In this document: positions 5,081-56,666 of the stretch, piece by piece
Position numbering within the stretch: the first letter of the stretch is position 1
Layout of the letters: each line of letters opens with the position of its first letter
Assembly (NCBI GenBank): GCA_964403585.1
Contig: CAYOFQ010000001.1
Span: forward strand, 960,826 to 1,024,825
Source of the DNA: an uncultured Gammaproteobacteria bacterium
GTDB taxonomy: Bacteria; Patescibacteriota; Microgenomatia; JALYQM01
Length of the DNA stretch: 64,000 nucleotides
Direction: 5' to 3'
Notes under the pieces: generated by a model
What the model saw: the letters and a program-made list of their open reading frames with translations, nothing else
Told to the model about the DNA's origin: nothing
Database searches by the model: none
Made by a program: the position numbers and the translations under genes

Positions 5081-5298
5081 TCACTTCTTACTACGGGTTG
5101 GACATCGAAGGATCGGACTGGAACAGTTCCTGGACCGATTATGGCTCATCCAGATTTATGACCTCCCGTTAGTAAGAAGTTTAGGGAACAAGAAGCGAAA
5201 CAGAGGTATGTTATGTAGCCTCCCCTCTGGGGATAGGTGACCTGTTTGGCTTAAATACGTAATCGTATATTTATTTCCTTCTCTATCCTCTTGCTGCA

Positions 5299-6003
5299 TT
5301 ACTTCATCAAGTTCCACCATCCCAATACACAGTTTTCCAAAAGCAACCGGGCATTAACGTTTGTTTCAGCGATCCACTCACTGGCTTGTAACAAAAATTC
5401 ACTGAACAATACAAATTGCTTCCGTCGACTCTCACCGGTAGTTCGTAACAAATCGCGAACGATAACACTTATATAGGTGATAAAGTCGCGCGCCACTTTT
5501 TTATCCTTGCCATATTCTTCACATAGCTTAAATAATTCGGGAAGTTTCAGTTTCTGTAGGTCCTCTTTCGACGGAAACTCATGTTCGGCAATCAGCTTCT
5601 CCAATAAACCTGAATCAAAACCTGACGAAACATCGGTTAACACTACCCGTGAAATTATTGTTGGCAGCAGAGACTGATACGAATCCAATTCCAGAAGATA
5701 CGTACTGTCAGCATTGGGTTCTTCATATAGTTTGAGCAAGGCATTTTGCGCCTGATCTGTTAATTTGTGTGCGTGATGTATAACAAACACCCGATGCTGC
5801 GCATGTAACGAAGTGTAGTTACTCTTTTCTATTAACGTCCGGATCTCGGCAATCCCAATTGAATTTTTATCCACCTCTAAAAAATCGACTAAAACTACTG
5901 TATGCTTTTGTTTTAAGCCATCAATAATACCATTAATATGACGCAATCTTTCTTCTCTATTCGAGCCGTAGATTACCGTTGTCATACCAACAATACTTGA
6001 CAT
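5299..6003 (-). CDS. holB: DNA polymerase III clamp-loader subunit, delta-prime-like (AAA+ family, no intact P-loop)
   Basis: The motif VFVIHHAHKLTDQAQNALLKLYEEP is typical of the clamp-loader gamma/delta-prime family. The protein is 234 aa and has no Walker A, which fits delta-prime. Confidence 0.5.
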   Translation of the reverse strand: MSSIVGMTTVIYGSNREERLRHINGIIDGLKQKHTVVLVDFLEVDKNSIGIAEIRTLIEKSNYTSLHAQHRVFVIHHAHKLTDQAQNALLKLYEEPNADSTYLLELDSYQSLLPTIISRVVLTDVSSGFDSGLLEKLIAEHEFPSKEDLQKLKLPELFKLCEEYGKDKKVARDFITYISVIVRDLLRTTGESRRKQFVLFSEFLLQASEWIAETNVNARLLLENCVLGWWNLMK

Positions 6004-21183: not shown

Positions 21184-21879
21184 TCATGACTGAGGCCAAG
21201 CGTCAAGTGCTGCCTTGGCAGCCGCTTGTTCGGCCTCTTGCTTACTCCTCCCATGCCCTTTTCCATAAACCTGGGAGTCTACTTGTACTTGTACCTCAAA
21301 TTCTTTTGCATGATCCGGGCCTGAGGTGCTAACCACGGTATACTGCGGAGAAATACGGAACTTCTCCTGAACTTTTTCCTGAAACATACTCTTATAATCC
21401 CGGAAGGTTCCGCTGGCAATAATCTCCTGCAAGTGGATAAGCAACCGGTTGGTTACAAAAATACGGGCTTTCTCAAAACCGAAATTAAGATATATCACCC
21501 CAAGTAACGCCTCAAAAGTATCTGCCAATAACGAGGGGTTTTCCTTACCTCCCGATTCGGCTTCTCCCCGCGCCATATGTAAATATGTGCCTAATCCTAA
21601 CTCACGAGCCACTACCGCCAGGGAACCGGTTTTTACAATTGAAGACCGGTAGTTGGTCAACTGCCCTTCAGGTAAAGTGGGAAACGTCTGGTACAAATAG
21701 TGGGAAACGATCAAGGAAAGCACACTATCCCCTAAAAACTCCAGTCGCTCGTTACTTTCCAGCGATTTATCTTTACTCTCATTGAGAAACGAACGGTGTA
21801 TAAACGCCTTTTTTACGAGCTGCTCGTCGGGAAATTCGATTGAATCCTCTCGTAATAAAGCAATCAGCGGTTCAAACAT
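21184..21879 (-). CDS. rnc: Ribonuclease III
   Basis: It has the RNase III signature ERLEFLGDSVL and a C-terminal dsRBD. Confidence 0.9.
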   Translation of the reverse strand: MFEPLIALLREDSIEFPDEQLVKKAFIHRSFLNESKDKSLESNERLEFLGDSVLSLIVSHYLYQTFPTLPEGQLTNYRSSIVKTGSLAVVARELGLGTYLHMARGEAESGGKENPSLLADTFEALLGVIYLNFGFEKARIFVTNRLLIHLQEIIASGTFRDYKSMFQEKVQEKFRISPQYTVVSTSGPDHAKEFEVQVQVDSQVYGKGHGRSKQEAEQAAAKAALDAWPQS

Positions 21880-28552: not shown

Positions 28553-28691
28553 AAAAGAGATCTCCCGGCTACCGTATATGCATAAATGTATCATGAAAAA
28601 ACGCATAAAGCGTTAATCATAACTCAGTTATGAGCATACGGTAGACGAGAGACCTCAAGAAAATTGCTAAGACAATGCAAATAAGGGTAGG

Positions 28692-29141
28692 CTAGTTGTT
28701 GCAGAACCGCAACCGTTGAATCTCTACCACGGAGCCAGGCGCAGCGGTCACCGCAACGGTAACTGGAACCCTGGCGTGGGCGATGACAATGTTATTAAAC
28801 TCTGACGCTGCCGGCCATGTACGGGTGTATCTTGACTCATATACCTCAGCAGCTCCATCGACCCAAAAGCCAACAGCATCCGACCAGTGAACCGAAAAGT
28901 CCACCGTTGCCATGCTACTTGGCTTAGCGGAAAAACCTTCCCCGTCGTTGAGCTCCATATAGGCCTCAACATAGTCCCCCAACTCCTGATCCTGCGGCAC
29001 GTCGACCGTCTCAGTCTGCGTGTAGCAAACCCAGGTCTCAGAGGATGGAGCACGCACCACGGCAGCATCTGCCGATGGAATTTTAAGTCCCAGCAAAGCG
29101 ACACCCAGCGCGAATAGAGCCGAAAAAATGCTGTTCCTCAT
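28692..29141 (-). CDS. Small secreted protein encoded in a GC-rich (about 57%) island. Function unknown.
   Basis: It has a Sec signal peptide (FSALFALGVALLGLKIPSADA|AV). Local GC and GC3 are far above the window background. The gene is preceded by AAGGAGG. Confidence 0.6.
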   Translation of the reverse strand: MRNSIFSALFALGVALLGLKIPSADAAVVRAPSSETWVCYTQTETVDVPQDQELGDYVEAYMELNDGEGFSAKPSSMATVDFSVHWSDAVGFWVDGAAEVYESRYTRTWPAASEFNNIVIAHARVPVTVAVTAAPGSVVEIQRLRFCNN

Positions 29142-29197
29142 AGCTCATGCCCTCCTTACGGCAACCCACGGTCCTTATTTTCCGCGGTATCAAATTG

Positions 29198-29250
29198 CCT
29201 TTGGCACAAGCGACGCCCGATTTATAATCCGGTGCCATTTGTGCCAAAGG
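29198..29250 (-). promoter_or_regulatory. 12 bp perfect inverted repeat (cctttggcacaa ... ttgtgccaaagg) in the long 5' leader of the GC-rich gene
   Basis: The repeat was read directly. The loop holds a second ggtgcc that could pair with the same 5' arm, giving an alternative structure. Confidence 0.4.
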
Positions 29251-29401
29251 AAGGCTATCTACTGTATGCTAACGGTAGCAGGGAGTGGTTGGAAGTCTTA
29301 TTTATACCCGATCTCCTTGAGCTCAGATGAACTCAAATTAACGAGGTAATACGGCTTCCAATACTCCCAACTACGTTTATTTTTTAAGGTACACGTTGCT
29401 A

Positions 29402-29430
29402 ATTATAGCATAATTTAAGCATAAATTCAA
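29402..29430 (-). promoter_or_regulatory. Near-consensus sigma70 promoter (TTGAAT-17-TATAAT) driving the GC-rich gene through a leader of about 250 nt
   Basis: The minus strand reads TTGAATttatgcttaaattatgcTATAAT. It lies about 20 nt downstream of the stop of the upstream gene. Confidence 0.5.
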
Positions 29431-38579: not shown

Positions 38580-38656
38580 TGGTGGACCCTAGAGGACTCG
38601 AACCTCTGACCTTCACAATGTCAATGTGACGCTCTAACCAACTGAGCTAAGAGTCC
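38580..38656 (-). tRNA. tRNA-Val (anticodon GAC), CCA encoded
   Basis: The minus strand reads GGACTCTTAGCTCAGTTGGTTAGAGCGTCACATTGACATTGTGAAGGTCAGAGGTTCGAGTCCTCTAGGGTCCACCA. The cloverleaf shows a 7 bp acceptor stem, a TTGACAT anticodon loop and a GTTCGAGTCC T-arm. Confidence 0.85.
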
Positions 38657-38816: not shown

Positions 38817-41381
38817 ATGCAAGAGATTCAAAAATTCGTTTCCTGGTATTTTTACCGGGTATTAATAGCTCACTTTCACTTTATCAACAATTCACTGGCT
38901 AAGGTCGAAGATGTCATTGGTATTACCACTAACGTCAGATTCTTTTTTACCCCCATCTACGGTGATCGCAGCTGGTTTGGACGAATTTTTTCTGTTTTTA
39001 TCCGAACCTGCGTAATTTTGGTTGGTGTACTGGTATTCATGCTCAGCTCGGTTATTCTCTTTACCGTACCACTAATCTGGTTATCCTCCTTACTACTGAT
39101 GTTCCGCTATCCGGCGTTTGCCGCAGTACCGATAGTAGGTTTCATGTACTTTGCTGTCAGCGCACGAAAAAAGCCATTTAAAATTCACCCTATACACGCA
39201 AAAAACTATGATTTACGTCCCTACTGTGACCTGGAATCCAAATATATCCTTCAGCTGGCTGGTACGTCTGTTTTTTACGACCGACTATTAAAAACTGAAG
39301 ACGTCAAACATTTTATCCAAAGAACACTTCTCCCCGTTAACGAAATCCTCCCGGTTCTACAGCAACAACCTTACTCGATGCAGAATATGTCAACCGCGCT
39401 GTTTCAATTAGCACAGGAACAGAAGATACGGTATATACGAACCAATCATATTTTTCTGGCACTCCTCCTCCTTAACGCAGCATTCATCGACACGATCTTA
39501 AAAAAACATAAGATGGACATTCATATTATCCAAACGTACATCTCCTGGGACGAATATGAATTCAACCTTGTGAATCCGCCGGATTTGTGGGATGCCGATT
39601 ATCAGCTGCTTGTTGGTGGTGGCACTAACAGAACCTGGCAAGGTACGGTTACCCCTATACTCAACCAATATGGATACGATTTAAATCAGGCAGTAGTGAA
39701 TGAACCCAATAAGGTAATTCGTAATGAACTTATCAAAGAGATCGAAAAGTCACTGCAAAAAAGCGAAAACTCCAATGTCTTACTGATCGGCGAAATCGGC
39801 GTTGGCAAAGATACCTTAGTAAGAGAGATCGCGCAGTGGATTAATTCAGGAGTAGTTCGCGGACCACTCTGGAGTAAACGAATTATAGATTTGGATATCG
39901 GGCGTCTTTTTGCCGGAACTACAGATAAAGGATCCTTTGAAGCCCGCGTCGAGTCAATTATTGATGAGATCGAACGCAGCAGTAATATAATTCTCTATCT
40001 GAATGACTTTACAGCAGCCATCGAAACCAAAACCAAAGAAGGAATTAACCTGTTCTCTCTATTACAAAAACCAATCACCTCCGGAAGAGTAAAAATAATC
40101 GCCGCCATTACACCAAAAGAATATAAGGCACTTGAACAGAATAATCCCCTCTTTTTAGGACAATTTACCATGATAAAAGTACCGGAAACCGATCCGGTCG
40201 AGTCGGCTTCGATTATCCACACATCCGCCCTGGAATATGAAGAAAAATATCACCTGTTTTTCCCCTACCCTATCCTCGATTTAGTAGTCACCTATGCCAA
40301 AAACTATATCCATGAAGGATTCTTTCCTGCCAAAGCCCTGGCCCTGGTTGAGGATGTCGCGGTAAGCGTTTTTAATGCTTCAAATAAGGATCAGTGGATA
40401 ACCAGGTACGGGCGAAGAATACCGGTACTAGAACCTGCAATTAACGCCTTGGTAAAAGCCAAAACCAATATTCCCGTTGGAGATATTGAATATAACGAAG
40501 CGCAAACCTTACTCCACATGGAAGACGAGTTTAGAAAATATATTGTTGACCAATCGGATGCTGTTCATGTTATTTCCGAAGTATTGAGACGCAATCGTTC
40601 CGGCTTGCGTAACACTAATAAACCAATCGGCTCATTCCTCTTTGTCGGACCAACCGGTGTTGGAAAAACCGAAATGGCCAAAACACTGGCCCGAATTTAT
40701 TACGGAAACGAAAAGCAAATGATTCGTCTGGATATGAGCGAATACCAGTCACAGGACAGTATTGATCGCCTCATTGGCAATACTTCTCAAAGTACAAGTT
40801 TGGAATCCCTGGTCCAAATCATCCGGAAACAACCCTACAGTCTCATCCTGTTGGATGAATTAGAGAAAGCCCATCCACGGATTTTGGACCTTTTCCTTCA
40901 GGTATTGGACGATGCCCGGCTCACCGATGCCTTCGGTACTACTGTTGAATTCAATGAAACAATCATTATTGCCACCAGCAACGCCGGCACACAGGAGATT
41001 ACCAAACAGTTTCAGTCCATAACCTCCTCCGAACAATACCAGGTCATTCAACAAAATCTTTACCACATACTTGCACCATATTTTAGAACAGAATTTTTAA
41101 ACCGGTTTGACGAAATAATTCTCTTTAAACCGCTTACCAAACAAAGCCTGGAAAAAGTAGTCCAAATGCAGCTTACCAAGATCGCCAAACAATTATATGA
41201 AACCAAAAAAGTCACGATTACTTTCAGTCAGGAAACTATCGATACTCTGATTAAAACCGGCTATAACCCTGAACTTGGTGCCCGACCGCTTCAACGTGCC
41301 ATCCAGGATCAGCTCGAGTCAAAAATCGCGACCATGATACTGGAAGGAAAAATCACTGAAGGGCAGTCGATACAAATTTAA
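38817..41381 (+). CDS. Membrane-anchored Clp/Hsp100-like AAA+ protein. The D1 ATPase motifs are degenerate and D2 is intact.
   Basis: There are 2-3 N-terminal TM helices (FGRIFSVFIRTCVILVGVLVFMLSSVILFTVPLIWLSSLLLMF). A Clp_N-like repeat follows (NHIFLALLLLNAAFIDTILKKH). D1 has a Walker A of GEIGVGKD, where Lys-Asp replaces Lys-Thr/Ser, and a Walker B of ILYLNDF with no Glu. D2 has GPTGVGKT, LILLDELEKAH and a GARPLQRAI sensor. The exact start is uncertain. Confidence 0.65.
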   Translation: MQEIQKFVSWYFYRVLIAHFHFINNSLAKVEDVIGITTNVRFFFTPIYGDRSWFGRIFSVFIRTCVILVGVLVFMLSSVILFTVPLIWLSSLLLMFRYPAFAAVPIVGFMYFAVSARKKPFKIHPIHAKNYDLRPYCDLESKYILQLAGTSVFYDRLLKTEDVKHFIQRTLLPVNEILPVLQQQPYSMQNMSTALFQLAQEQKIRYIRTNHIFLALLLLNAAFIDTILKKHKMDIHIIQTYISWDEYEFNLVNPPDLWDADYQLLVGGGTNRTWQGTVTPILNQYGYDLNQAVVNEPNKVIRNELIKEIEKSLQKSENSNVLLIGEIGVGKDTLVREIAQWINSGVVRGPLWSKRIIDLDIGRLFAGTTDKGSFEARVESIIDEIERSSNIILYLNDFTAAIETKTKEGINLFSLLQKPITSGRVKIIAAITPKEYKALEQNNPLFLGQFTMIKVPETDPVESASIIHTSALEYEEKYHLFFPYPILDLVVTYAKNYIHEGFFPAKALALVEDVAVSVFNASNKDQWITRYGRRIPVLEPAINALVKAKTNIPVGDIEYNEAQTLLHMEDEFRKYIVDQSDAVHVISEVLRRNRSGLRNTNKPIGSFLFVGPTGVGKTEMAKTLARIYYGNEKQMIRLDMSEYQSQDSIDRLIGNTSQSTSLESLVQIIRKQPYSLILLDELEKAHPRILDLFLQVLDDARLTDAFGTTVEFNETIIIATSNAGTQEITKQFQSITSSEQYQVIQQNLYHILAPYFRTEFLNRFDEIILFKPLTKQSLEKVVQMQLTKIAKQLYETKKVTITFSQETIDTLIKTGYNPELGARPLQRAIQDQLESKIATMILEGKITEGQSIQI

Positions 41382-41387
41382 GACTAT

Positions 41388-41519
41388 ATGAGAAACAAAA
41401 AATTACTTACCTGTATAATTCTCGCCGGAGTAGTAATCTGTGGGTGCTACCTATACGTTAGAATGTCATATCCATCATCTGGATGTATAGATTATGGACA
41501 TGTTACATACTGTGAATGA
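41388..41519 (+). CDS. Possible 43 aa cysteine-rich small membrane/secreted peptide (MRNKKLLTCIILAGVVICGCYLYVRMSYPSSGCIDYGHVTYCE)
   Basis: This is an untracked small ORF directly after the Clp-like stop. It has 6 Cys and a hydrophobic N-terminus. No clear SD is present. Confidence 0.25.
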   Translation: MRNKKLLTCIILAGVVICGCYLYVRMSYPSSGCIDYGHVTYCE

Positions 41520-41688
41520 GCGATGCCATCAGCCGGTTCACCCACATAAGAAATTTGTTCAAATTTGACTATTTATATACTATAATCTTGAGCATCTCCT
41601 CGAGGTAGTTTTGGAGTCGTTCCGAAATACTACGTACAGGAGTTGTTCTTTAACACACCGTATAATTATCTATCTCCCCTCTATAGAG

Positions 41689-41732
41689 CGGTGAAATGAG
41701 CTGATGAAATAGTCGGTTGATTTCACCGTTTT
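41689..41732 (+). terminator. Hairpin plus T4 in the 5' leader of the second GC-rich gene. Candidate attenuator or terminator.
   Basis: The sequence cggtgaaat...atttcaccg forms a 9 bp stem with a loop of about 22 nt, followed by TTTT. It lies about 100 nt upstream of the GTG start. Confidence 0.4.
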
Positions 41733-41826
41733 AGAAAGGGGGTGGTAGGATTCCGAACAACAAAACCAGGAATAATCCCTAAGATGACGTTGGACCAGTG
41801 TGGTTCAACTCAACAAGGAGAAATCT

Positions 41827-42309
41827 GTGTTAGGCTTACCACGGCGACTCATCGTAGTCGCACTCGCGATCGCGGCCATGCTCGTGGCCATTGCACCCGA
41901 TGGGGCGGCTCACGCCGCTCCCGCCAACCGGCAAACCACCATTGCTGCCTACATCGCTTCACCGGCCTCTCAAGCCACAACGGCCGACGAGAACGACGAC
42001 CACCCGCCGGAATGTAGCGCGATGATTGGCAGCAAGTATGGCTGGCGCTACACCTTCGGCGTGGGACAATGCATCAAGCTGACCGAGACCATCTGGATCA
42101 CCTTCCTGGGGGCTACCGTTACTGAAGCTGGTCATACTGTCGAGGTGCTCGTGTCGGTAGGTAGCGACCGGCGTGTCTACGAGGCGCTACTCGTAACACC
42201 CTACAACGCGAACTACAGCGAAGCCACCTTGTACGCCACGCACGTGTGCCAGAACATCCACCTCTGGTACTATGGAACGAGCATGCAGCTCGGGGCGAAA
42301 ATCGTGTAG
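41827..42309 (+). CDS. Small secreted protein with a twin-arginine-like signal peptide, encoded in a 60-70% GC island. Function unknown.
   Basis: A GTG start is preceded by AAGGAG plus 6 nt. The signal peptide is MLGLPRRLIVVALAIAAMLVAIAPDGAAHA|AP. The gene is strongly GC3-rich, unlike all of its neighbours. The mature protein has 3 Cys. Confidence 0.6.
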   Translation: MLGLPRRLIVVALAIAAMLVAIAPDGAAHAAPANRQTTIAAYIASPASQATTADENDDHPPECSAMIGSKYGWRYTFGVGQCIKLTETIWITFLGATVTEAGHTVEVLVSVGSDRRVYEALLVTPYNANYSEATLYATHVCQNIHLWYYGTSMQLGAKIV

Positions 42310-42343
42310 AACGCGGTAGATAACGCTCGTCGGAGTTCGTGAT

Positions 42344-42384
42344 TCACGCGCCGTGTGGCGAAACCCGTTTCATACGGCGCGTGA
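42344..42384. repeat. GC-rich perfect 11 bp inverted repeat (tcacgcgccgt ... acggcgcgtga) at the 3' boundary of the GC island
   Basis: The repeat was read directly. No T-run follows it. Confidence 0.5.
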
Positions 42385-42428
42385 GGTTGCGAAGGAAAAT
42401 AATTATACGGTGTGTATTAGTTGAGTTC

Positions 42429-43526
42429 CTATTTTAGGAAACCCTTCGACACAAATATATCATTGTACGTCACAAAGAGTAACAGCAAAATCAGCAGCGC
42501 GAAGAACACCGCGTGCGACCACTGCTCAAACTTCGGATTCGGCTTACGTCGGGTAATTGCTTCATACACCATGAACGCAAAACGGCCACCATCAAGTGCC
42601 GGAATCGGCAATAAGTTAAATATCGCCAGGTTTACCGACAACAATCCGGCGAACTGCAAACATGATAAGAAGCTGTTTCCACAGAACAACTGCGAAGCAC
42701 GGTAAATGCCTACCGGACCGGCTACCTCAGCGGGAACTTTCTGCTGAAATGCAATTGATGTCACGAGATTTTTTAATGCGGGAAGGATCTGTTTGGACAT
42801 TTCCACCGTATCATTAAAACCCGCTCCAATGCCATAGAAAGGCATTTGATACCAGGGATAGAATGTCGTTCTCAATTTCTGATCCAGTTGCACACCCAAA
42901 GCACCTTGACCAGCCGGCGGATTACTGCGTGGCACTACCTGCACATCCAATTTTTCCGATCCTCGAACTAAAGACAACGTAACTTGAGATTCAGCCTGTT
43001 CCTTAACCTTTGCGATCAGGCTTTCGGAATCTTTTACCTTTTCACCATTAATTGCATCTACCCGATCGTTAGGGCGAATACCGGCCACATCAGCCGGAGA
43101 ACCGCTCACTACTTGCCCTACCAGGACATCAATCTGCGGGGGTCGAGAAGGAATACCAATATTTGAGTACACAATTGCAAACAACGCGATACCCAGTATA
43201 AAGTTCATCACCACACCTGCCAGCACAATTACCATTCGTTTCCATAACGCGGCATTCTGAAAATTCTTTGGATCAGATGCATCGGAATAGATGGAGTCTT
43301 CTCCGGTCAAACGGACAAAGCCACCAATCGGCAGCCAGTTTAAAGAGAATAAAGTACGCTCATCAGGTTTACCGGGACCCGGCTTCTTGCCAAACCTTCT
43401 GCCAAAAAGACGTGGAGGCAACCCAAACCCGAACTCTTCAACACGTACACCACTTTTTTTCGCAGCGATAAAATGGCCAAACTCATGAAGAATCACGAGG
43501 ACCAGCAATATAATGATAAAATCCAT
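42429..43526 (-). CDS. rseP: Site-2 protease RseP (M50 zinc metalloprotease with PDZ domain)
   Basis: The HEFGHFIAAK motif (HExxH) sits in the first TM. A PDZ domain and an LDGG motif are present. Confidence 0.88.
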   Translation of the reverse strand: MDFIIILLVLVILHEFGHFIAAKKSGVRVEEFGFGLPPRLFGRRFGKKPGPGKPDERTLFSLNWLPIGGFVRLTGEDSIYSDASDPKNFQNAALWKRMVIVLAGVVMNFILGIALFAIVYSNIGIPSRPPQIDVLVGQVVSGSPADVAGIRPNDRVDAINGEKVKDSESLIAKVKEQAESQVTLSLVRGSEKLDVQVVPRSNPPAGQGALGVQLDQKLRTTFYPWYQMPFYGIGAGFNDTVEMSKQILPALKNLVTSIAFQQKVPAEVAGPVGIYRASQLFCGNSFLSCLQFAGLLSVNLAIFNLLPIPALDGGRFAFMVYEAITRRKPNPKFEQWSHAVFFALLILLLLFVTYNDIFVSKGFLK

Positions 43527-45578: not shown

Positions 45579-46193
45579 CTAAAAAGTGATGTCTCTGAGG
45601 ATCTGGGCGACCTCAGCCGGAAGACTTTCCCCCCGCTTGATACCCCGAATGGAAATCGGACCAATTTCGGTAACATTGCCGTAAAAGCCGTCTATTCCCC
45701 GGTCCGATTGACATACTTCATAAGCAACCGGATTCGAATCAGCAGCCTGCAGAGGCGCTACCCGCCATTTTTTACCGGCTTGCTTGGAAATTTCCATATA
45801 ATTCCCATATCGAATAAACATCCCCTGCTGATCTGCATCCGAGGGATACAGGCAGTATCCGCCATCCAATATCCCCTGCACGATACTGATTGTATAAACA
45901 GTATTTGTTATTTGAATAGTCGCACCGGTATCTGATTCATTAATCGCCTTTACCGACCAGCTGGCCGGATACTTCACGGTAAATTTCTTATTTAATCCGT
46001 TAGTCGACGTCGGAGTATGCATATATGTTTTGAGCGTTGCGGAAACACTTGAAGCAGTTGGAGTTGCAGCTTCCGGAATTGCCGATGCTGCTACTGTAGG
46101 CGATGAGATGATTGTCGGCTCAGGAATGGGCTCGACCCGGGTACAGGCAGCAAATAACAATACAAAAGGAATAACATAAAAATATTTGTTCAT
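45579..46193 (-). CDS. Predicted lipoprotein. Function unknown.
   Basis: It has a signal peptide with a lipobox (VLLFAAC). The N-terminal linker is Pro/Ser/Ala/Thr-rich. Confidence 0.55.
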   Translation of the reverse strand: MNKYFYVIPFVLLFAACTRVEPIPEPTIISSPTVAASAIPEAATPTASSVSATLKTYMHTPTSTNGLNKKFTVKYPASWSVKAINESDTGATIQITNTVYTISIVQGILDGGYCLYPSDADQQGMFIRYGNYMEISKQAGKKWRVAPLQAADSNPVAYEVCQSDRGIDGFYGNVTEIGPISIRGIKRGESLPAEVAQILRDITF

Positions 46194-46245
46194 ATATCTA
46201 TACTACAATTATTCACCCGGCATTCCAAGTTGCGTTCATAAAAAG

Positions 46246-47007
46246 CTATCGCATACTTGGTGGACCTAACTCTTTTTTCAGTAACTCAGTAAGCTGGAAA
46301 AGCGGAGTGTAACCTTTCGCCGGAACAAAAGTTGAAAAGTCAGCTACAAAGTTAAGTCCGTCAACGGAAGTATACTTTTTTGGAATTTCAAAAAGCATTG
46401 CCGAATGTTCATTAGTTTTGGGCGTGACATTATCTAGATCCAACAGCGTAAAGGACATAATATCATTATCAATATCAATACGTGATTTACTATCAAAGAT
46501 CATAAAAGGATGAATGTTCTCATTGCTAACTCTATGGAATATAGCTTGCGGAACGGTCGAATTATTCTTCAATGTATACATGACAATCAACGCACCATTT
46601 GTTGGGTTAACTATTTGACCGCCAAACCCTAATTCAGCCTGCTTTAGCTCCAACGCTGACGCAACAAATGCCCCTAATACAGTTAACTCAACATTTTCGT
46701 TAAGTTTGATTGGACTATTTTTCTGCACCAAAGTATACCCACTCAATGATGGTCCTGCGGAGCTGGCCGGACGCACGGAACGTGTAGGTAGCGGTGTTTT
46801 CACTGCTGCAACAGGAGATGCAGAGATTGGAGGTGACGCAGTTACCAAAGCCTGAGTCGACGCGGAAGGGATAGCGGAAATTGTTGGACTGGCAGAAGGA
46901 GGTGCGGAAACTTCTTCAGTTCGGGAACCGTTGAAATACAGGAAGCCGGTAGTAGTAACCGTAAGAATTCCCACCAGTATTAATATGATTGGAAGTTTAC
47001 TCGACAT
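46246..47007 (-). CDS. Membrane-anchored hypothetical protein with a Ser/Pro-rich linker
   Basis: It has an N-terminal TM (LPIILILVGILTVTTTGFLYF), a low-complexity SP-rich linker and a C-terminal globular domain. Confidence 0.5.
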   Translation of the reverse strand: MSSKLPIILILVGILTVTTTGFLYFNGSRTEEVSAPPSASPTISAIPSASTQALVTASPPISASPVAAVKTPLPTRSVRPASSAGPSLSGYTLVQKNSPIKLNENVELTVLGAFVASALELKQAELGFGGQIVNPTNGALIVMYTLKNNSTVPQAIFHRVSNENIHPFMIFDSKSRIDIDNDIMSFTLLDLDNVTPKTNEHSAMLFEIPKKYTSVDGLNFVADFSTFVPAKGYTPLFQLTELLKKELGPPSMR

Positions 47008-47861: not shown

Positions 47862-48019
47862 GTTCTTAAATTTGTTCAGCGAGGCGACGAAGTCGTCCGC
47901 TGGAGGTCGCCGAACACGCTAAAGCGACCGAATGAACTCATTAAGGGGAAAAATAGCAAGTGAGCAGGCAATCCCTAAGGGGTATAAACTGAGCTTCCGC
48001 AGCGAACAAATTTAAGAAC
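47862..48019 (+). repeat. Copy A of a structured repeat family of about 158 nt (possible ncRNA or MITE-like element)
   Basis: A perfect 16 bp terminal inverted repeat (gttcttaaatttgttc / gaacaaatttaagaac) flanks the conserved blocks AGCGAGG, CGTCCGCTGG and GAGCTTCCGCAGC. Copy B at 56681-56837 shares these blocks. Confidence 0.5.
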
Positions 48020-56072: not shown

Positions 56073-56666
56073 ATGAAATCATATTTTTACGATTTGTTAA
56101 TGTTTGTTCTGGACATCACACAGACCTTTATTGTTGCATTCGCTTTTTTCCTGATAATTTACGGATTTGTCGTTCAACCTCATAAAGTTTCCGGACAGTC
56201 AATGATGTCTACACTGAAAGATGGTGAGCTTATCTTAACCAACAAAATAGTCTACCGCACCAAACAACCGGTACGGGGTGACGTTATTACTTTCAAGGCT
56301 CCGGTTGACCCAAAGAAAGACTATATTAAAAGGATAATCGGCCTACCGGGAGAAAAGCTGGAAATAGCCCATAACACAGTTAAAATCTATAACCAGAGAC
56401 ATCCTGACGGCTTTATACTGAAGGAAGATTATCTTGATACCACACAAATTACGGAGGCAGGTGTGTACTTTACCGAAGGCGAAGCCAAAATAATTCCTGA
56501 GGGCGAGTACATGGTCATGGGTGACAATCGGTTAAATTCATACGATTCGCGCGCCTGGGGAACATTGAAGAAAAATGCGATTATCGGCAGAGCCTGGTTC
56601 GTGTACTGGCCTTTCAGCCGCTTAGGATTTGATCCCGAACACCGCTATCCGGAAGAGATGCAATAG
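56073..56666 (+). CDS. lepB: Signal peptidase I
   Basis: It has S26 boxes (GQSMMSTL with the catalytic Ser, KRIIGLPGE, GDNRLNSYDSR). Confidence 0.85.
   Translation: MKSYFYDLLMFVLDITQTFIVAFAFFLIIYGFVVQPHKVSGQSMMSTLKDGELILTNKIVYRTKQPVRGDVITFKAPVDPKKDYIKRIIGLPGEKLEIAHNTVKIYNQRHPDGFILKEDYLDTTQITEAGVYFTEGEAKIIPEGEYMVMGDNRLNSYDSRAWGTLKKNAIIGRAWFVYWPFSRLGFDPEHRYPEEMQ

Follow-up and report, generated by a model that had tools for sequence, protein, structure and literature searches.

Invertible DNA switches such as fimS, Hin/hix and the cwpV and flgB switches of Clostridioides difficile have short perfect inverted repeats around a few hundred base pairs (bp) that lie between, or include, a promoter and the gene of a secreted or surface protein; the recombinase of the two C. 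difficile leader switches is encoded elsewhere. In ribosomal RNA (rRNA) operons, processing stems form by long-range pairing of 5' and 3' segments and are cut by RNase III. In mobile insertion cassettes (MICs), such as MIC231 of Bacillus cereus and the TnXax1-derived MICs of Xanthomonas, a passenger lies between short inverted repeats without an internal transposase, and the passengers of the Xanthomonas MICs are often secreted effectors (PMC4337579). The locus analyzed here is a single gene for a putative exported protein, rich in guanine plus cytosine (GC), together with its flanking signals; it lies between the convergent clpC-like and rseP genes in a stretch of 64,000 nucleotides (nt) of contig CAYOFQ010000001.1 (the window, in which all coordinates are counted from the first letter), and is called the islet below. 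The reading preferred here, with moderate confidence, is that ~880 nt (~41536-42415) constitute a lineage-specific single-gene expression cassette, the coding part and 3' hairpin of which were acquired horizontally from a donor of higher GC content. This gene is bracketed, moreover, by a perfect 17-bp inverted repeat, a feature that is new here and absent from an earlier note on the same DNA. The gene and the elements that would start and direct its product are the following.

41815-41820, + strand: Shine-Dalgarno sequence AAGGAG, recognized from sequence, 6 nt ahead of the GTG start
41827-42309, + strand: orphan gene for a precursor of 160 amino acids (aa), 483 nt, with GTG start at 41827 and TAG end at 42309
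41827-41916, + strand: predicted signal peptide, residues 1-30, MLGLPRRLIVVALAIAAMLVAIAPDGAAHA followed by AP, with cleavage between AHA and AP

The compositional evidence is concentrated in the open reading frame (ORF). Its GC contents at the first, second and third codon positions (GC1/GC2/GC3) are 0.59/0.48/0.73, with an overall GC of 60%, as would be seen in a gene that comes from a ~60% GC genome. The GC3 of 0.733 compares with a mean of 0.419 (sd 0.052) in 57 host genes and ranks 1/58 with z = 6.0, host genes having GC3 of 0.35-0.47; the Lys content of the product is the lowest of the 58 genes (1.9% vs 6.4%) and its Ala content the second-highest. The islet is also the top 300-nt GC peak of the whole 64 kb (0.62; the window averages 0.443, sd 0.039), and 40-nt windows within it reach 0.75, in agreement with the earlier description of a GC-rich islet of about 72% locally; the composition test, run as for a second GC-rich orphan in the window (islet 1, below), thus found an outlier and not the lack of anomaly that the earlier note had named as the contrary outcome. 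The GC-rich portion is confined to the ORF (0.60) and the 3' hairpin (0.57), ~41830-42392 or ~560 nt, and GC is host-like (0.39-0.43, with leader stretches to 0.45) in the promoter, leader, repeat arms and flanks. The GTG start and AAGGAG ribosome-binding site that had been reported for 41827-42309 are present as given, and the public database gene call has the identical 160-aa product. Because three-base periodicity, ribosome-binding site and signal peptide are taken together, the gene is regarded as coding; on these sequence features the ORF very probably codes for protein and has foreign composition.

The second line of evidence is the absence of the gene from relatives. The comparison set comprised seven related contigs with RseP 58-83% identical, the nearest of them related only at genus level (RseP 81-83%). 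The synteny of rpsB-tsf-frr-rseP with a convergent clpC-like gene is kept in all seven, and none of the seven carries the islet ORF at the rseP-adjacent site; the presence/absence check that goes with the earlier claim of a foreign gene beside RseP therefore came out in its favor. In the present genome the convergent clpC-like and rseP genes are separated, stop to stop, by 1,047 nt (the rseP stop codon is at 42429-42431). The corresponding gaps in six of the relatives are listed here by contig.

L002: 107 nt
L082: 49 nt
L083: 108 nt
L084: 235 nt
L147: 107 nt
L148: 10 nt

The GC of the relatives' intergenic regions, measured in four, is 0.35-0.46. In the seventh relative, L149, the gap is occupied by an unrelated AT-rich gene (5162-5524 of that contig) for a 120-aa lipoprotein with a cytochrome-b5 (Cyt-b5) domain; L149 is the relative with RseP 58% identical, and the GC3 of this gene is lower than that of its own host (0.17 vs 0.30). 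The rseP/clpC-like junction may be tolerant of exported-protein genes, or attractive to them. The neighbors of the islet are otherwise core housekeeping genes, with threonyl-tRNA synthetase (ThrRS), a glycosyltransferase, tRNA-Val and the ClpC-like AAA+ protein on one side and, in order, RseP, Frr, Tsf, RpsB, an RluA-like protein, a response regulator, LspA, a DksA-like protein and Lgt on the other.

The comparison with relatives also helps to place the edges of the inserted DNA, on the left by means of one short element.

41521-41535, no strand: probable ancestral clpC-like/rseP intergenic remnant CGATGCCATCAGCCG, with partial matches to L002 and L082

Within it CGATGCCATCAG is common to the L002 intergenic region and ATCAGCCG to that of L082, at the same position in both; the matches are individually weak (P = 0.06 for L002), and this 15-nt stretch is probably what is left of the ancestral intergenic DNA. 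Since the remnant ends at 41535, the left edge of the inserted DNA is placed near 41536, upstream of the promoter, and similarity to the relatives picks up again just past 42415. Two Logan contigs, SRR16481186 (9.6 kb) and SRR16481187 (2 kb), are 100% identical over both junctions; as these are assemblies of two independent runs, misassembly is unlikely.

The searches for homologues, which together span ~15 billion proteins, yielded no relative of the protein. A word-indexed search of 5.8 billion clusters returned only the self-match, and an exhaustive HMMER search of 1.84 billion representatives returned the self-match and one 5,271-aa repeat protein (P0002, E = 1e-8), which was rejected as spurious: its score is summed over eight near-identical 63-residue repeats of 27-30% identity. 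No significant match to the protein was found in Pfam, PHROGs, NCBIfam, PADLOC or PDB sequences, and none in phage and plasmid collections or IMG/VR (tblastn, blastn). The earlier suggestion of a link to actinobacteria or other high-GC Gram-positive bacteria is therefore left without support by the sequence comparisons, as would be any named donor; with no homologue anywhere searched, none can be named. AlphaFold2 models made without an alignment have predicted local distance difference test (pLDDT) values of 37 (mature protein) and 44.5 (C-terminal domain), neither model being usable, and the best E-value of Foldseek against PDB was only 0.86. After removal of the predicted signal peptide the mature protein has 130 residues, consisting of an acidic Ala/Thr/Pro-rich linker of ~30 residues and then a ~100-residue domain with three Cys (precursor residues 63, 82 and 141); the low-confidence models contain mainly strands, suggesting that the domain is beta-rich.

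The earlier note had suggested that the product is secreted by the twin-arginine translocation (Tat) route. That it bears an exported-type signal with an RR pair and an AHA/AP cleavage site holds; the route is not supported. Tat signals follow the consensus S/T-R-R-x-F-L-K, and in them the h-region is weakly hydrophobic and the c-region basic. Here the n-region MLGLPRRLIVV does contain consecutive arginines, but in the context LPRRLIVV, with Pro instead of S/T ahead of RR and no Lys after it; the 16-residue h-region LIVVALAIAAMLVAIA is very hydrophobic (mean Kyte-Doolittle 3.14), and the c-region PDGAAHA has no basic residue. None of the ~55 window ORFs scanned (64 kb of a 1.57-Mb genome) matches a Tat component family. 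By rule-based inspection the segment has the positive n-region, hydrophobic h-region and A-H-A/A-P site of a substrate of the general secretory (Sec) pathway and signal peptidase I, and the window holds a signal peptidase I gene (Peptidase_S26 match, 56073-56666, E = 6e-47). A Sec/signal peptidase I signal thus fits the sequence better than a Tat signal.

Upstream and downstream of the gene, the following elements were found.

41558-41586, + strand: sigma-70-like promoter candidate TTCAAA-17-TATAAT, 10/12 positions
41593-41826, + strand: 5' leader of ~235 nt, strongly structured, with host-like GC
41676-41741, + strand: long leader hairpin with 29-nt arms, core CGGTGAAAT / ATTTCACCG then TTTT at 41689-41732
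42344-42384, no strand: GC-rich 3' hairpin with a perfect 11-bp core and no U-tract on either strand

The AT-rich promoter block noted previously at ~41555-41590 (GC 0.25) accordingly contains the near-consensus hexamers, the 9 bp hairpin with T4 at 41689-41732 is nested in the longer leader hairpin, and the perfect 11 bp GC hairpin at 42344-42384 is also present. The leader folds at -90.6 kcal/mol (z = -6.2), and 0/200 shuffles are as stable; against Rfam it has no match at the gathering score and two chance microRNA matches at E <= 10. An intrinsic-terminator scan of the + strand called neither the leader hairpin nor the 3' hairpin, and promoter-like and terminator-like sites are no more numerous in 41000-43000 than in shuffles. 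A hairpin followed by U4 is present in the leader, where inspection by eye showed no antiterminator partner, and to call it an attenuator is a guess. It is possible that the 3' hairpin is a stabilizer, or an atypical terminator shared with convergent rseP. An integron attC site was considered and rejected: GTTAGGC overlaps the start codon, but on inspection the 3' hairpin has no RYYYAAC/GTTRRRY pair.

The arms of the perfect inverted repeat lie in the leader and close to the end of rseP.

41653-41669, no strand: left arm ACACACCGTATAATTAT, within the leader, forming a perfect repeat with the right arm
42399-42415, no strand: right arm ATAATTATACGGTGTGT, ending 13 nt short of the rseP stop codon

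Between them the arms enclose most of the leader, the ORF and the GC-rich 3' hairpin, and this interval contains no plausible coding ORF other than the islet gene. In dinucleotide shuffles of 41000-43000, 0/500 reach 17 nt, the maximum being 14, and when 280 nt upstream of each of 59 window genes was scanned against 150 nt downstream, the leader/trailer match of the islet was the strongest. In a modelled transcript (41593-42440) the arms pair at a probability of 0.81-1.0, with a duplex energy of -26 kcal/mol, and an RNase III gene, rnc, is present in the window at 21184-21879. A role of the repeat at the RNA level, as closure of the mRNA or as a double-stranded site, is physically plausible on this modelling. 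A further sequence, AAATTTGTTC, was considered as a shared motif and dropped: of its three copies in the window a single repeat contributes two, as its arms, and the count is not significant.

Taken as a mechanism, the preferred acquisition of a foreign gene would postdate the split from the nearest sampled relatives (those with RseP 81-83% identical). The near-consensus sigma-70-type promoter would drive transcription, the transcript would bear the highly structured leader of ~235 nt, and translation would begin at AAGGAG-N6-GTG; the precursor would then be exported by Sec and cut by signal peptidase I after AHA, releasing a beta-rich protein of 130 aa with three Cys that would have an extracellular role, its possible targets being the envelope, a partner cell or a host cell. 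The 17-nt complementarity of leader and trailer would most likely operate in the mRNA, by loop closure, for stability or as an RNase III site.

Several points weigh against this account. The transfer is drawn from composition and from absence in relatives, no donor or homologue having been found. The relatives are related at genus level only, with RseP at most 83% identical, so that loss in the relatives, or rapid divergence, may have occurred instead of gain. Promoter and leader are host-like in GC; the cassette is therefore a mosaic, and its acquisition in one step is only putative. The length of the ORF is on its own marginal for such a composition (P = 0.06), and 17 bp is short for a classical RNase III substrate.

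Two alternatives place the function of the repeat in DNA. If the islet were a MIC, or a non-autonomous element resembling a miniature inverted-repeat transposable element (MITE), the 17-bp repeats would be its terminal inverted repeats and the transposase would be encoded elsewhere in the genome; this fits the perfect repeat that brackets a passenger gene with no transposase inside, and the lack of the gene in relatives. It is nevertheless unlikely. No target-site duplication of 2 nt or more occurs outside the arms, the left flank ending in TTGTTCTTTA and the right flank beginning with ATTAGTTGAG (that is, ...TTTA before the left arm and ATTA... after the right arm), and a scan of the 64 kb that allowed up to 4 mismatches gave no further copy of the 17-mer. 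Exact 17-mer matches in viral (3) and metagenome (56) contigs are all of single arms in unrelated contexts, as fits chance. No transposase, integrase or recombinase family (Resolvase, Recombinase, Phage_integrase) was matched by any scanned window ORF. The promoter and the remnant at 41521-41535, moreover, lie outside the left arm, so that the inserted DNA seems to extend at least 118 nt farther to the left than the repeat. As an invertible switch, on the other hand, the repeat would have a geometry that suits: the promoter (41558-41586) is outside, perfect repeats flank 729 bp holding the gene, and inversion of 41670-42398 would uncouple the gene from its promoter and make expression phase-variable. 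The missing adjacent invertase is not decisive, because the C. difficile switches use a distant recombinase. The scanned ORFs of the 64 kb, however, include no serine or tyrosine recombinase, the same single orientation is found in three assemblies (the window and the two Logan runs), and the inverted state would turn on no sensible ORF, all of which makes a switch very unlikely.

Other explanations question the transfer, the role of the repeat or the gene itself. The gene might be native and fast-evolving, or the arms might be the stem of an ancestral bidirectional terminator in the loop of which DNA had landed, the repeat being a by-product in either case. Streamlined uncultured bacteria commonly encode small orphan secreted proteins, the 107-nt intergenic region of L002 is one long hairpin (z = -5.3) with an outer stem that abuts both stop codons, and in the window, too, only 13 nt separate the right arm from the rseP stop codon. 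Against this, a GC3 of 0.73 with amino-acid usage of the high-GC type is hard to reach in situ in a genome of 44% GC, the intergenic regions of the other relatives are not significantly structured, and the remnant shared with L002 falls within the hairpin loop there but in the window lies left of the left arm, so that the arms are not positionally equivalent; this origin is accordingly considered improbable. Least credible is a reading of the islet as structured non-coding RNA, as a spurious ORF or as an assembly chimera. GC-rich islands in genomes of lower GC can mark structured RNAs, the modelled whole transcript folds at z = -5.9, and the length of the ORF alone is marginal, as noted above. 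These points are opposed by the periodicity (GC3 0.73 vs GC2 0.48), the ribosome-binding site, the textbook signal peptide and the absence of any Rfam match even at E <= 10 save the two chance microRNA matches, and a chimera is opposed by the 100% identity of both junctions in the two run assemblies. What is most likely is thus an ordinary, recent, single-gene horizontal acquisition of an orphan Sec-exported protein in a neutral gap between convergent core genes. What this leaves as unusual is the perfect 17-bp repeat, along with the mosaic in which a foreign ORF is joined to a host-like promoter and leader.

The earlier note had drawn a parallel to islet 1, which spans 28557-29420.

28692-29141, - strand: islet 1 gene, a GC-rich orphan of 149 aa with a signal peptide and two Cys

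Islet 1 has a near-consensus promoter and a leader of ~250 nt (z = -6.7); its GC3 of 0.59 is above that of all 57 host genes (z = 3.35), its Lys content is below that of all 57, and no homologues of its protein were found. The parallel stands as far as architecture is concerned, both islets encoding a secreted Cys-containing protein behind a structured leader, and fails for sequence: the two proteins are unrelated, and the leaders cannot be aligned (score 19 vs null 18 +/- 2). Leader and trailer of islet 1 are complementary over 14 nt with one mismatch (29272-29285 and 28562-28575), a length met by 1/300 shuffles that yet ties for ranks 2-3 of 59 genes; the 3' arm doubles as one side of a classical terminator hairpin, and the fold prefers that hairpin. 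This hairpin, which follows the gene, has 40-nt arms and T6, and the leader holds an imperfect direct copy of its 5' arm. The heptamer ACCGTAT occurs in the repeats of both islets and was considered as an islet signal; it was rejected as a genome-wide bias, being over-represented throughout the window (21 copies of ACCGTAT/ATACGGT vs 6.5 +/- 2.7 expected, with 0/100 shuffles having as many), mostly in coding sequence and on both strands. Four of its six intergenic copies are within the two islets.

With two orphan compositional outliers that carry signal peptides, the earlier proposal of recurrent capture of foreign secreted-protein genes is borne out to the extent that recurrent acquisition of genes for foreign exported proteins is reasonably supported. 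It is a good deal more speculative, and unlikely, that both islets are transposase-less cassettes representing an undescribed way to install foreign exported-protein ORFs in a Patescibacteria-like lineage. Equally tentative is the set of features that such cassettes would have in common, namely a host-type promoter, a structured leader of ~240 nt, a GC-rich orphan ORF, and leader/trailer complementarity at the terminators of convergent genes, the complementarity serving either to close the mRNA or to mark the DNA.

If the acquisition of a foreign gene is correct, a streamlined and probably host-dependent bacterium has gained a small exported protein from a donor of higher GC, and small exported proteins of this kind are candidate factors in cell-cell interaction. 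The protein adds an entirely uncharacterized family, with no relative among the ~15 billion sequences. A repeat bracketing the gene, were it recurrent across the genome, would indicate a specific mechanism of capture or regulation; islet 1 offers a weaker analogue.

Other features of the window and of the relatives were noted in passing, one of them adjoining the islet.

41388-41519, + strand: possible small ORF of 43 aa, MRNKKLLTCIILAGVVICGCYLYVRMSYPSSGCIDYGHVTYCE, starting 7 nt past the clpC-like stop and containing 5 Cys

The N-terminus of this ORF is signal-like or close to a lipobox, and its tail is rich in Cys; it matches no family, is not called on Logan contig L145 and is absent from the short intergenic regions of the relatives. 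The stretch is lineage-specific filler between the clpC-like stop and the islet, and whether it is truly coding is uncertain. The ClpC-like AAA+ protein itself (38817-41381) has no Clp_N and has instead an N-terminal region of ~300 residues without a Pfam match, in which hydrophobic, transmembrane-looking segments are visible by inspection; the relatives have conserved proteins of comparable length (824-884 aa) in the same place. A perfect 16-bp inverted repeat, GTTCTTAAATTTGTTC / GAACAAATTTAAGAAC (47862-47877 / 48004-48019), encloses 126 nt of relatively GC-rich intergenic DNA between the response-regulator and pseudouridine synthase genes, for which a small structured RNA, a terminator and an invertible element are all conceivable. 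Gene content also varies between rpsB and the pseudouridine synthase gene: in the window (45579-47007) this interval encodes two proteins without a Pfam match (204 and 253 aa), in L084 one protein of 523 aa, in L147 and L149 two small ORFs each, and in L148 none. In L082 a large serine recombinase (Resolvase/Recombinase/Zn_ribbon_recom, 1-136) is immediately upstream of lgt, a position taken in the window by tRNA-Leu and an unannotated ORF of 262 aa. Downstream of gyrB, ~2 kb (586-2618) contain no convincing ORF, the longest (116-117 aa) being low in complexity and matching no Pfam family, and have no match to an Rfam family; this DNA may represent an undescribed RNA or what is left of a degraded gene. 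The window also contains a type IV pilus cluster, which together with the similarity and names of the RseP matches suggests that the host is Patescibacteria-like.

Set beside the described systems, the islet differs from rRNA processing stems in that its RNA is the mRNA of a small protein, the stem is 17 bp with an imperfect extension, conservation is absent, and the pairing is predicted only; it resembles them in having upstream and downstream segments that are predicted to pair, enclosing the RNA between them, and in the presence of an RNase III gene in the window. From invertible switches it is set apart by the absence of a nearby recombinase, by the one orientation seen and by a segment that is a whole gene and not a promoter or leader element, although short perfect inverted repeats around a secreted-protein gene are common to both. 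Unlike MICs, it has no target-site duplication, is present in a single copy in the 64 kb, has repeats for which no related insertion sequence (IS) element was found, and has its left repeat inside the leader, downstream of the promoter, and not at the apparent end of the insert; like MICs, it has a passenger gene between short inverted repeats and no internal transposase. Compared with horizontally acquired islets of orphan ORFs (ORFan islets), it consists of a single gene, has no integrase among the scanned ORFs, no tRNA target (the nearest tRNAs are at 38580 and 50096) and no flanking direct repeats, joins a foreign ORF to promoter and leader sequences of host-like type, and has no homologue and no donor that can be named. 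It shares with ORFan islets an atypical GC content and codon usage, absence from the syntenic site of relatives, a harmless location between convergent genes and a small exported product.

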